Shown piece by piece: positions 61,624 to 62,548 of a stretch of 64,000 nt of DNA; positions within the stretch are counted from its first letter, which is position 1, and the number at the start of each line of letters is the position of its first letter. Origin of the DNA: a virus; the UHGV virus genome UHGV-0026213. One strand, given 5' to 3'. The position numbers were made by a program, and so were the translations under genes. The notes beneath the pieces are model-generated. The model was not told where the DNA came from. It made no database searches and worked only from the letters and a program-made list of their open reading frames with translations.

Positions 61624-62145
61624 GTGATAGCGCGACTTGCGAGTTGGTTTAAGCAACGTCGGGCAAAGGCGGTCGAATGGCCGCCTATTACGCACGATGA
61701 AAAGGTGGTTGCTTTTCTGAACTATAACAAAGACTTGAAGAAATTGGGCGAAATAATGCGCCTAACGGAAACTCAGGTCTTTGCTAAGATTTCAAGTAGT
61801 GCTTTACGTAAACAGATAATTCCCCACCTATCCTTTTCAGGACAGGTTTATGCATTAACAGCAGAGGAATTTTTATCGATGGTGGGGAATGAAACCCCAC
61901 GTATACGGTACTCGGTTACGGATTCATCTGATGCGGTCGGTACGGTCGATTTCGGACGATTGTATCAGAGCATTAAAGACGTGGGCCATATACATGTTAA
62001 ACGTGTATCAGAAACTTCTGTAGTGATTTATCATCGTACTGAGCACGATTTGTTAGGGCGTGTTATAACGCTAACAAATTTACATAGTTTTTACGTTGAT
62101 TTACTTACAGGGTTTTATCCAGAACCATGGTGTTTTATACGATGA
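61624..62145 (+). CDS. hypothetical protein
   Basis: Probable GTG start; stop overlaps next start. Confidence 0.45.
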   Translation: MIARLASWFKQRRAKAVEWPPITHDEKVVAFLNYNKDLKKLGEIMRLTETQVFAKISSSALRKQIIPHLSFSGQVYALTAEEFLSMVGNETPRIRYSVTDSSDAVGTVDFGRLYQSIKDVGHIHVKRVSETSVVIYHRTEHDLLGRVITLTNLHSFYVDLLTGFYPEPWCFIR

Positions 62146-62354
62146 AAAGAGCTAATGGATACATCATCTCAGCGATTGTTTCAACCGTGCTGGTTGTGAC
62201 GATGCTGATGTTTTATGTTCGTGTGTCAGATGACTCGCGCAAAGAAAGTCTTTATCGTGAGTGTATGTCAGGAACGACCGTGGACAATCCACGTTACAGC
62301 GAATTGGTAATGGCGTGCACAGAACATGCTAAACTAATGGGAGATGGTCGATGA
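62142..62354 (+). CDS. small membrane-anchored protein, paralogue A
   Basis: N-terminal hydrophobic segment IISAIVSTVLVVTMLMF; ESLYREC...C motif shared with next ORF. Confidence 0.45.
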   Translation: MKRANGYIISAIVSTVLVVTMLMFYVRVSDDSRKESLYRECMSGTTVDNPRYSELVMACTEHAKLMGDGR

Positions 62355-62548
62355 AGATTTGGTTACCGATTGTAGCTTTCATCCTTATCGCTGGGGCACT
62401 AGCAAGTGCCGAGTGCGACAATCGTGTTTTAGAAAAGAAAAGCGAATTGTATCAGGATTGTATAAAGGATTACACACCAGGTACAGAGCTTCATGCACAG
62501 GCTGTAAAAAGTTGTGCGCTGATGGCTGAATCGCAGACTCGTTCCTAA
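62351..62548 (+). CDS. small secreted protein, paralogue B
   Basis: Signal-peptide-like MKIWLPIVAFILIAGALASA-EC; SELYQDC...C motif. Confidence 0.45.
   Translation: MKIWLPIVAFILIAGALASAECDNRVLEKKSELYQDCIKDYTPGTELHAQAVKSCALMAESQTRS

Follow-up and report, generated by a model that had tools for sequence, protein, structure and literature searches.

A tandem pair of paralogous, predicted periplasmic two-cysteine proteins in an SPN3US-related giant phage

Two small open reading frames, ORF1 and ORF2, lie side by side in a window of 64,000 nucleotides (the whole stretch of viral DNA that was analyzed). The source is a giant phage of Salmonella/E. coli that is related to SPN3US and has a genome of roughly 222 kb. 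An earlier note on this DNA described the two products as related small proteins with membrane-anchor or signal sequences and paired cysteines, and named superinfection exclusion and lysis-timing control as candidate roles. The locus raises the question of whether these are real and related genes, to which proteins they are related and what they might do in the infected cell.

Gene pair, operon and export signals

ORF1 and ORF2 are real, translationally coupled genes under purifying selection. Both are in the ORF list where the earlier note had placed them (Table 1). The ATG of ORF1 overlaps the stop codon of the upstream gene in an ATGA, the start of ORF2 overlaps the stop of ORF1 in the same way and has a GGGAG Shine-Dalgarno motif upstream, and the end of ORF2 overlaps the next gene in a TAATG; these overlaps chain the two genes into an operon. 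Metagenome contigs in which the pair was called independently show identical synteny, and its homologues, which are almost uniform in length, reside on phage contigs of 220-230 kb. ORF1 has 33 homologues, mostly of 70 aa and 70-93% identity, and ORF2 has 52, mostly of 65 aa and 72-98% identity. The residues LYRECM...RY.ELV.AC are invariant across the ORF1 family, and the ORF2 family keeps CIKDY.PGTELHAQAV.SCALMA with little or no variation. When computed against four relatives, dN/dS is 0.05-0.14 overall (0.11-0.14 for ORF1, 0.05-0.12 for ORF2).

The pair lies in a slot between conserved genes. The upstream gene has no Pfam or PHROG assignment, and BLASTP matched it to none of the proteins annotated in the equivalent stretches of SPN3US and Asesino. 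The downstream DUF488-N3a gene is 58% identical (BLASTP) to genes of both phages, SPN3US gp120 (RefSeq tag ACQ60_gp146) and Asesino gp136. A terminator-like hairpin ends the operon, which extends over about 59.0-62.98 kb, and sets it apart from the genes of the tail and virion module. Neither the locus nor the two ORFs gave a match when a phage collection was searched by nucleotide comparison and tblastn; only the flanking genes resemble SPN3US-like phages, with about 70% identity.

Table 1. Coordinates of the gene pair, its predicted parts and its flanking features in the window
Feature	Coordinates	Strand	Description
Upstream gene	61624..62145	+	173 aa; translationally coupled to ORF1; variable slot between conserved anchor genes
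ORF1	62142..62354	+	70 aa; listed ORF; predicted type-II (N-in/C-out) inner-membrane-anchored protein
ORF1 signal-anchor (transmembrane) segment	62163..62219	+	residues 8-26, IISAIVSTVLVVTMLMFYV
ORF1 periplasmic domain	62220..62351	+	residues 27-70; 44 aa, predicted helix-loop-helix
ORF2	62351..62548	+	65 aa; listed ORF; predicted secreted (signal peptidase I-type) soluble periplasmic protein
ORF2 signal peptide	62351..62410	+	residues 1-20 (MKIWLPIVAFILIAGALASA); predicted cleavage ASA|E
ORF2 mature domain	62411..62545	+	residues 21-65; about 45 aa
DUF488-N3a gene	62548..62922	+	final gene of the operon, downstream; Pfam PF22751, E = 1.6e-11; syntenic anchor
Terminator-like hairpin	62950..62977	.	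strong, bidirectional, intrinsic type; 11 pairs, 8 of them G-C, then a T-run

The topology of both products is predicted from hydropathy, charge and the -3/-1 rules, and from homologues that carry this domain behind a lipoprotein signal or a signal peptide. ORF1 begins MKRANGY-IISAIVSTVLVVTMLMFYV-RVSDD..., and its anchor is the most hydrophobic 19-mer of the protein, with a Kyte-Doolittle mean of 2.43, which bears out the TM-like N-terminal segment of the earlier note. The net charge of the flanks is +2 on the N side and 0 on the C side, a positive-inside signal that is weak in most homologues, and inspection for cleavage motifs found no small -3/-1 residues after the hydrophobic core. These features indicate an uncleaved N-in/C-out signal anchor. 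The signal peptide that the same note read in ORF2, with its ASA-E site, also holds up: the N-terminus (MK-IWLPIVAFILIAGAL-ASA|E) has classical n, h and c regions ending in ALASA|E, with Ala at -3 and -1, and homologues retain the A-x-A (ALANA|EY).

A shared two-cysteine domain and its wider family

ORF1 and ORF2 are paralogues that share a domain of roughly 45 aa, in which one invariant Cys sits close to where the first predicted helix ends and a second lies within the other helix. The direct BLASTP comparison gives E = 7e-4. A Smith-Waterman alignment of the mature parts scores 44, against 20.7 +/- 4.3 in 20,000 shuffles (p = 3.5e-4), and hhalign of the two family profiles gives E = 3.3e-4 with both Cys in register. 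A lipoprotein relative, P0252, bridges the two. The paralogy claimed earlier is thus supported, and the motif cited for it is borne out (ORF1 has RKESLYREC, ORF2 has KKSELYQDC). The second Cys is conserved in both, although it lies 18 positions after the first in each and not about 20 as had been written. The conserved pair is C41 (62262-62264) and C59 (62316-62318) in ORF1, and C37 (62459-62461) and C55 (62513-62515) in ORF2, with a spacing of C-x17-C in each. Its extracytoplasmic location, also claimed before, agrees with the predicted topology and with the export of the same domain in homologues. ORF2 has a third Cys, C22 in 'AEC', which is lineage-specific and is a Tyr in most homologues. 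A family HMM matches only ORF1 and ORF2 among the 649 ORFs of the window, and only ORF1 and ORF2 among the 2,761 ORFs of about 95% of one relative's genome.

The shared domain is predicted to be a helix-loop-helix. AlphaFold2 models, built on shallow, mixed MSAs, place helices at 2-15 and 26-41 of the ORF1 domain (domain numbering; mean pLDDT 90.8) and at 2-18 and 26-43 of the mature ORF2 domain (mean pLDDT 92.3). The helix register suggests that the two Cys of a pair may point in different directions, which leaves intermolecular disulfides possible.

Searches against known families returned little. At E <= 1 Pfam assigns neither ORF to a family, NCBIfam (including its Cor model) gives only chance-level rows, and PADLOC has no match. 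A PHROGs 'membrane protein' row at E = 0.024 is marginal, covers the ORF1 TM segment and was set aside as an artefact. A profile search of PDB sequences found nothing. Every Foldseek match in PDB and BFVD had E > 2, in searches that are uninformative for a 45-aa hairpin; Asesino gp134 appears there at rank 21, which is not significant.

More sensitive comparisons point to a large phage family, PHROG 10627 (function unknown), consisting mostly of lipoproteins of about 80-100 aa. A profile search of 1.84e9 proteins puts its size at at least 247 clusters at 50% identity. ORF1 convincingly and ORF2 probably appear to be divergent short-loop members. This placement is reached through P0252 and an independent HMM. 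P0252 matches phrog_10627 at E = 7.7e-5 and aligns by hhalign to the ORF1 family with a probability of 95.6% (E = 1.1e-8) and to the ORF2 family with 77.6% (E = 1.9e-5). The independent HMM was built from lipoprotein, TM-anchored and secreted members and excludes the ORF1, ORF2, gp116 and gp118 groups. It scores 14-18 bits on ORF1 (E = 3e-4 to 8e-4) and 10-11 bits on ORF2 (E = 0.02-0.03, a moderate direct link), against 3.2-6.7 bits for the best unrelated ORF. The phrog_10627 HMM itself matches neither ORF at E <= 1. P0115, the top match of the large profile search, and P0197 were rejected because they are translated tandem repeats.

The family domain is always preceded by an export signal, mostly that of a lipoprotein and otherwise a TM anchor or signal peptide. 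Among 149 relatives, 116 have a lipoprotein N-terminus and 24 a TM segment or signal peptide. An Asp at +2, which retains lipoproteins in the inner membrane under the E. coli rule, is found in about 20% of the 116. The domain follows a signal anchor in ORF1 and an A-x-A signal peptide in ORF2, and both have the family core of two helices, with [FY]-x-x-C-[MILV] ending helix 1 and [VIL]-x-x-C-x-x-x-A in helix 2. The family alignments show invariant or near-invariant columns at the two Cys and at the Ala. Short loops are also found in a few other family members, such as P0252 and P0245.

The same locus carries similar products in related phages. In SPN3US the slot between the gp115 and DUF488 anchors encodes a small membrane protein and a secreted hairpin protein (gp116/gp118), and the slot in the Erwinia phages Asesino and Stratton likewise holds a small membrane protein and a secreted hairpin protein. 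In Asesino and Stratton, a 58-aa protein with two hydrophobic segments is encoded immediately upstream of the secreted member. SPN3US gp118 belongs to the PHROG 10627 family, and gp116 resembles ORF1 and ORF2 in sequence comparisons, where the shuffle p values (0.005 against ORF1, 0.003 against ORF2) give weak support and hhalign gives E = 1e-3 to 3e-3. Between these two genes lies gp117, a protease paralogue (PMC5694885). The analysis also corrects an idea in the literature that gp118 could be the detached C-terminus of gp117. Literature on the motif, on SPN3US gp116 and gp118 and on giant-phage exclusion yielded no characterization.

Candidate roles at the host envelope

ORF1 and ORF2 most plausibly act on the host envelope. 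The best overall explanation, given a probability of roughly 0.4, is a tethered and a free periplasmic hairpin that together alter the envelope of the infected cell. ORF1 would insert N-in/C-out into the inner membrane, with its domain exposed on the periplasmic side, while ORF2 would be cut after ASA and freed as a soluble 45-aa periplasmic peptide. The Cys pair would be oxidized by DsbA, stapling the hairpin. The tethered copy would cover the membrane surface and the free copy the periplasmic lumen. The weakest step is the one that leads to a function: the pair, produced from a non-structural operon, would bind a periplasm-accessible component of the host envelope through the invariant loop and helix-2 face, and this alteration would most probably block or blunt the entry of further phages. 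Such a block would amount to superinfection exclusion, or would protect the cell from the cell-wall-degrading enzymes that incoming virions carry, much as T4 Sp/Imm, Cor and Llp act. Exclusion or envelope protection is a tentative best guess for the function, made largely by analogy, and lysis timing is less likely.

The genomic setting of the family bears on this choice. Seven family contexts are early or accessory runs of small genes (ERF, NinB, Lar, HNH), one of them on a bacterial-genome contig whose content resembles that of a prophage. In none of the seven did Pfam calls place a lysis-gene family within 5-6 kb. In a close relative (about 95% of the genome), the only annotated endolysin-type glycoside hydrolase, a GH108, lies about 20 kb away, and a lysis-cassette check found no membrane-protein neighbours of the GH108 gene. 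This context favours a role at the envelope, early or accessory and in keeping with exclusion, over the control of lysis.

Control of lysis timing, the other role proposed earlier, would have the inner-membrane-tethered and soluble proteins bind the periplasmic domain of a holin as the T4 antiholin RI does. A small anchored or secreted periplasmic helical domain does resemble RI, and the 58-aa neighbour in Asesino and Stratton is holin-like in size. However, neither ORF matches rI or holin families in PHROG or Pfam, the GH108 gene of the relative is distant, no lysis-gene Pfam family was called near any of the seven contexts, and the strong hydrophobicity of the ORF1 anchor sets it apart from a releasable SAR domain; the idea is unlikely. 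A two-component spanin, with ORF1 as the inner-membrane and ORF2 as the outer-membrane subunit, would account for adjacent overlapping genes that encode one TM-anchored and one exported product, each with periplasmic Cys. The features of Rz/Rz1-type spanins (a lipobox Cys at +1, a long periplasmic coiled coil and a lysis cassette) are nevertheless missing from the pair. ORF2 has no lipobox, its predicted cleavage is at ASA|E and its Cys22 is preceded by Glu and unconserved. The 44 aa that ORF1 places in the periplasm fall far short of bridging it, and the two proteins share homology, which Rz and Rz1 do not. An endolysin or holin was not found nearby, and a spanin is very improbable.

It is just as improbable that the products are components of the virion or prohead that the prohead protease of giant phages processes. 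The SPN3US enzyme cuts after A-X-E (PMC5694885), and the ...SAE of ORF2 would fit such processing, as would the neighbouring protease paralogue gp117 in SPN3US. However, the ORF2 motif is S-A-E (N-A-E in relatives) and not A-X-E, and it ends a canonical hydrophobic signal peptide in a family whose relatives are lipoproteins. The window contains no gp117 homologue, gp116 and gp118 are not treated as virion proteins in PMC5694885, and the terminator separates the operon from the structural genes. A stronger competitor, possible though doubtful, is manipulation of the host envelope for a purpose other than exclusion. The hairpins would inhibit or activate a periplasmic enzyme or sensor, such as a protease, a peptidoglycan hydrolase or a sensor kinase, and so condition the cell for giant-phage replication. 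MgrB, a 47-aa two-Cys membrane peptide that inhibits PhoQ, is an example of such an effect. The same structural evidence (helix-loop-helix models and an exported domain) fits this proposal, as do the early or accessory locations of the family genes. The varied anchoring, with Asp at +2 in part of the lipoproteins and other members TM-anchored or soluble, also fits and suggests a target accessible on the periplasmic side, not a single specific receptor in the outer membrane. Pfam and NCBIfam, however, show no similarity of the pair to MgrB or to inhibitor families, and the sequence data do not distinguish this proposal from exclusion.

Exclusion or envelope protection may also extend beyond this locus. 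In a broader and speculative reading, against which the odds are clear, the exported C-x17-24-C hairpin (PHROG 10627 together with the ORF1/ORF2/gp116 branch) would be a widespread and unrecognized class of phage envelope effectors. Its members would be disulfide-stapled periplasmic mini-proteins, made early or from a prophage and directed against competing phages, with giant phages using a two-piece version of an inner-membrane-tethered and a free periplasmic copy. The phages concerned are of very different kinds and include temperate lambdoid/P22-like phages, 100-kb Pseudomonas phages and SPN3US-related giants.

The immediate value of the pair is as a divergent short-loop variant of a catalogued but uncharacterized family, which offers an annotation and a clean experimental target. 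If the family does act on the host envelope, it would be a class of very small (about 45 aa), easily synthesized periplasmic effectors and would join the few characterized phage exclusion and envelope proteins. It would also provide a first function for PHROG 10627, with its clusters spread across unrelated phages, and would identify envelope-directed genes in SPN3US-type genomes, which encode mostly hypothetical proteins. Giant phages of this type are under development as genetic models and therapeutics.

Comparison with known systems

Candidate functional analogues are T4 Sp (spackle), Imm and RI, T5 Llp and lambdoid Cor, small phage proteins that reach the envelope of infected cells by export or are anchored there. 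FhuA is the target of Cor and Llp, both of them outer-membrane lipoproteins, and Imm contains two TM segments. ORF1 and ORF2 share no sequence or profile similarity with any of these proteins, and the folds and lengths differ. The T4 Imm/Sp/RI and Cor family models in Pfam, PHROGs and NCBIfam do not match either ORF.

The IncN plasmid protein EexN (NCBIfam NF033894) is also similar in outline. It is a small envelope lipoprotein with a helix-Cys-loop-Cys-helix arrangement (R46 EexN: ...ERKATIEECKKNADELQKPDCKNAREA). The family member P0111 matches NF033894 at E = 1.8e-6 with 27.7 bits, under the cut-off of 33, and the match spans mainly the lipoprotein signal and helix 1. Kinship was rejected: the family profile aligns to R46 EexN with an hhalign probability of 0.4%, and the independent HMM scores 2 bits. 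NF033894 matches neither ORF1 nor ORF2, a tblastn search of PLSDB plasmids with the mature domain of P0111 found no family member, and the Cys spacing of EexN is C-x11-C compared with C-x17-C.

The closest likenesses are in other phages. SPN3US gp116 (PHROG 28359, function unknown) has 69 aa and, as ORF1 does, an N-terminal hydrophobic anchor and a C-x17-C domain, and it directly follows the gp115 homologue in a position equal to that of ORF1. It differs in its identity of only about 25% and in an independent HMM E value of 0.13. PHROG 10627 includes SPN3US gp118, Asesino gp134, Stratton gp138 and lipoproteins of the Pseudomonas phage KoPa-4 gp95 type. These share with ORF1 and ORF2 an export signal followed by the pattern D-x(8-11)-[FY]-x-x-C-[MILV]...[VIL]-x-x-C-x-x-x-A, in a helix-Cys...Cys-helix arrangement. 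Compared with them, the loop of ORF1 and ORF2 is 4-7 residues shorter (C-x17-C instead of C-x21-24-C) and lacks the LPxGP...YNDW(D/S/A)EVV signature, and the C-terminal extension is missing. ORF1 and ORF2 also differ from these proteins in their arrangement as a tandem pair, in which one product is TM-anchored and the other soluble.

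Gene structure and genomic setting of the pair

ORF1 and ORF2 are real genes, and the boundaries that the earlier note gave them were confirmed. ORF1 has 33 homologues, mostly of 70 aa (70-93% identity), and ORF2 has 52, mostly of 65 aa (72-98% identity). They come from contigs of 220-230 kb in metagenomes and in Salmonella, E. coli and Shigella isolate assemblies. Both genes are recovered by independent gene calls with identical synteny. Compared with four relatives, ORF1 has a dN/dS of 0.11-0.14 and ORF2 one of 0.05-0.12 (dS ~0.6-1.4). Variation in both families lies mainly in the signal or anchor segments and the termini; the region from the cysteine loop to helix 2 is almost invariant.

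The end of an upstream 173-aa gene overlaps the start of ORF1 in an ATGA, as does the end of ORF1 with the start of ORF2. A GGGAG lies ahead of the ORF2 start. At its other end ORF2 shares a TAATG with the DUF488-N3a gene, its stop codon overlapping that gene's ATG, and a strong bidirectional terminator-like hairpin lies 3' of that gene. These overlaps and the hairpin indicate that the four genes are the last ones of a single tightly coupled operon, set apart by the hairpin from the downstream virion and tail-fibre module. The listed ATG of the DUF7941 virion-protein ORF falls within this hairpin; since relatives call a 186-aa product, the true start probably lies 3' of the terminator, near 63011. 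Two more strong terminator-like hairpins share a GGAGAGAGGG-type stem, and this stem may recur in the phage as a regulatory element.

Coordinates of the pair, its neighbours and the genes compared with them
Feature	Sequence	Coordinates	Remark
Terminator-like hairpin	window	57423-57450	GGAGAGAGGG-type stem
Terminator-like hairpin	window	58490-58513	GGAGAGAGGG-type stem
Conserved anchor	window	60447-60929	SPN3US gp114
Conserved anchor	window	60929-61621	SPN3US gp115
ORF1	window	62142-62354	70 aa
ORF2	window	62351-62548	65 aa
ORF2 Cys22 codon	window	62414-62416
DUF488-N3a gene, conserved anchor	window	62548-62922	SPN3US gp120
Terminator-like hairpin	window	62950-62977	bidirectional
DUF7941 virion-protein ORF as listed	window	62966-63571
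Conserved anchor	window	63011-63571	virion protein
gp117	SPN3US, L022	1485-1970
gp118	SPN3US, L001 / L022	5487-5819 / 1967-2299
gp119	SPN3US, L001	5828-6835
gp133	Asesino, L002	2769-2945	58 aa
gp135	Asesino, L002	3231-4346
gp137	Stratton, L003	2757-2933	58 aa
ORF1 orthologue	NZ_CP173450.1, L009	6532-6744	70 aa; ~55,520-55,732, minus strand
Exported Cys protein	L017	196-339	47 aa
Exported Cys protein	L014	551-802	83 aa

The window belongs to a giant phage whose distant relatives include Salmonella phage SPN3US (Seoulvirus) and the Erwinia Erskinevirus phages. Between the conserved anchors is a variable slot which, in each lineage compared, is occupied by genes for a small membrane protein and for a secreted Cys-hairpin protein. 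These are ORF1 and ORF2 in the window, gp116 (anchor and C-x17-C) and gp118 (signal peptide and C-x21-C) in SPN3US, and a protein of 58 aa, with two hydrophobic segments, followed by gp134 or gp138 in Asesino and Stratton. The 58-aa protein (gp133 and gp137; PHROG 32826) is holin-like in size, lies directly upstream of the secreted hairpin gene and replaces the anchored hairpin copy. In SPN3US and Asesino, a gene for a 336-371 aa protein (gp119, gp135) precedes DUF488-N3a, and gp135 has a PP-loop-like motif (LTGGVDSS) at its N-terminus. The window has no gene of this type, and ORF2 directly abuts DUF488.

SPN3US gp117, between gp116 and gp118, has been described as a divergent prohead-protease paralogue, and gp118 was proposed speculatively as the missing 3' part of the gp117 gene (PMC5694885). 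Because gp118 opens with a signal peptide (MKKVLVLLGALVAPMVAHA-AD, the hyphen marking cleavage) and belongs to PHROG 10627, it looks unlikely to be a detached 3' end. Homologues of gp117 carry the RefSeq label 'head maturation protease'.

The complete genome of a urine isolate, E. coli strain 98232, includes a relative of the window's phage in the form of a circular replicon of 221,873 bp that bears a plasmid annotation (NZ_CP173450.1, 'plasmid p98232-contig_4'). It encodes tail fibres, a family B DNA polymerase and an S80 prohead protease, with 83% nucleotide identity over the locus (window 61610-62922). The ORF1 orthologue is intact; in the RefSeq record PGAP calls only the ORF2 orthologue of the pair. 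Many ORF2 homologues on the 220-230 kb contigs are likewise labelled Salmonella, E. coli or Shigella proteins. Together, the replicon and these labels suggest that isolates often bring the phage with them, through a carrier state, pseudolysogeny or contamination.

Paralogy and family membership

ORF1 and ORF2 are, as judged by sequence comparison, paralogues. BLASTP aligns them at E = 7e-4, their mature parts score 44 by Smith-Waterman against 20.7 +/- 4.3 in 20,000 shuffles (p = 3.5e-4), and hhalign of the two family profiles gives E = 3.3e-4 with both cysteines in register. These statistics are meaningful though not overwhelming, since only one comparison, between neighbouring genes, was made. 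The strongest support comes from a third sequence aligning to both families, P0252, a lipoprotein of 70 aa whose core is C-x18-C. It matches the ORF1 family with a probability of 95.6% (E = 1.1e-8, 39% identity over the mature domain) and the ORF2 family with 77.6% (E = 1.9e-5).

PHROG 10627 includes gp118 and the Erwinia proteins, and PHROG 28359 includes gp116. A profile from the trimmed domains of all five groups matched 247 clusters at E <= 1e-3 among 1.84 billion representative proteins; the two top long matches are artefacts, being translated tandem repeats. Most of the 149 members examined have 80-100 aa. Lipoproteins account for 116, proteins with a TM anchor or signal peptide for 24 and fragment-like sequences for 9. 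The consensus is ...DQC.RR.IF..CM.ALPAGP..T.YNDWDEVV..C..AAYYQ, with a spacing of mostly C-x22-24-C and short loops in a few members (P0252, P0245). All ten members tested matched phrog_10627; the PHROG HMM detected neither ORF1 nor ORF2.

An independent HMM was built from relatives only, leaving out ORF1, ORF2 and the gp116 and gp118 groups. It scored gp118 at E 1e-12 (42.4 bits), Asesino gp134 at 1e-6 (23.5 bits), ORF1 at 8e-4 (14.1 bits), ORF2 at 0.018 (9.8 bits) and gp116 at 0.13 (7.0 bits); the best unrelated of 649 window ORFs reached 2.2 (3.2 bits). Across ~95% of a related 222-kb genome, only the orthologues of ORF1 (2.8e-4, 17.6 bits) and ORF2 (0.03, 11.1 bits) rose above noise, the best unrelated of 2,761 ORFs scoring 0.71 (6.7 bits). 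These scores argue convincingly for ORF1, and make it probable for ORF2, that they are divergent short-loop members of the PHROG 10627-type family. In the window and in ~95% of the relative's genome, the domain occurs exactly twice, in adjacent genes.

Small exported Cys proteins also adjoin two distant family members. One is a TM protein ending in ...REYRRMAECIGVGGDVCE (L017), and the other has a hydrophobic N-terminus and several cysteines (L014). Tandem sets of such proteins may be a recurring arrangement.

Export signals and predicted fold

The TM-like segment that the earlier note saw in ORF1 is present: residues 8-26 are very hydrophobic (Kyte-Doolittle mean 2.43), with flanking net charges of +2 (N) and 0 (C) and no -3/-1 cleavage motif. 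It is read as a predicted uncleaved N-in/C-out anchor. The signal peptide proposed for ORF2, with its ASA-E site, is a textbook one ending in ALASA-E. The shared motif also stands (RKESLYREC in ORF1, KKSELYQDC in ORF2); the spacing needs correction, as the second cysteine lies 18 positions on in both (C-x17-C) rather than about 20. A third cysteine of ORF2, Cys22, adjoins the predicted cleavage site and is outside the conserved pattern. It occurs in the window lineage with homologues P0034-P0036, and most relatives have Tyr. The resulting odd number of cysteines in the mature peptide might allow a covalent dimer or mixed disulfide.

AlphaFold2, run on a mixed 26-sequence alignment, predicts a helix-loop-helix for ORF1 (helices 2-15 and 26-41, mean pLDDT 90.8) and for ORF2 (2-18 and 26-43, 92.3). 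The first cysteine closes helix 1 and the second lies within helix 2. The conserved pair in an exported domain suggests a putative intramolecular disulfide; intermolecular bonds are possible. Searches with Foldseek (PDB, BFVD) and with a profile against PDB sequences returned no significant match for either domain, as expected for a 45-aa hairpin.

Possible function and comparison with known systems

Genomic context is the only functional hint for the pair. Pfam, NCBIfam and PADLOC scans, with models such as the Cor exclusion lipoprotein, returned nothing relevant, and no characterisation of gp116, gp118 or the motif was found in the literature searched. All seven family contexts examined lie within runs of small early or accessory genes. 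These include a ~100-kb metagenomic phage contig (KoPa-4 family) with a KoPa-4-type lipoprotein, lambdoid or P22-like early operons adjoining ERF, NinB, Lar and HNH genes, and a 332-kb bacterial-genome contig whose similar run of phage early genes is probably a prophage.

In E. coli, Asp at +2 retains a lipoprotein in the inner membrane. About 20% of the 116 family lipoproteins have this residue, and other members are TM-anchored or soluble. Such varied predicted anchoring points to a target accessible from the periplasm, and away from any single outer-membrane receptor. Both products would be exported, ORF1 displaying its hairpin on the inner membrane and ORF2 lying free in the periplasm as a peptide. 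Their invariant loop/helix-2 surface would bind a host envelope component, and the most plausible outcome would be a modified envelope that shields an infected cell when further phages attack. Export and fold are the well-supported steps; the host target and phenotype are conjecture. Superinfection exclusion specifically is tentative (probability about 0.3), and it is possible that the hairpins manipulate the envelope or a sensor in some other way.

Control of lysis timing is rather unlikely. None of the seven contexts had a lysis-gene Pfam family called within 5-6 kb of the family member. In the E. coli 98232 relative, the only annotated endolysin-type glycoside hydrolase in ~95% of the genome, a GH108, is ~20 kb from the pair and has no membrane-protein neighbours. 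A role as a spanin is very improbable, and the same slight chance is given to the products being prohead-protease substrates; gp117 has no homologue in this slot of the window.

One relative gave a sub-threshold match to the plasmid entry-exclusion lipoprotein EexN, which was rejected after R46 EexN gave an hhalign probability of 0.4% and 2 bits with the HMM. The layout of EexN is similar to that of the family (a lipoprotein with helix-Cys-loop-Cys-helix), as an analogy only. ORF1 and ORF2 are at most work-alikes of T4 Sp, Imm and RI, Cor, Llp, EexN and MgrB, and members of none. The finding would gain interest should this family turn out to act generally in exclusion from the periplasm. Among catalogued groups, PHROG 10627 and PHROG 28359 come closest, neither with an assigned function, and the pair is a variant of a kind already catalogued but uncharacterised. 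Four features set it apart from a typical PHROG 10627 member: a loop 4-7 residues shorter, the loss of the LPxGP...YNDWDEVV signature, a minimal length, and the tandem pairing of one tethered with one free copy.
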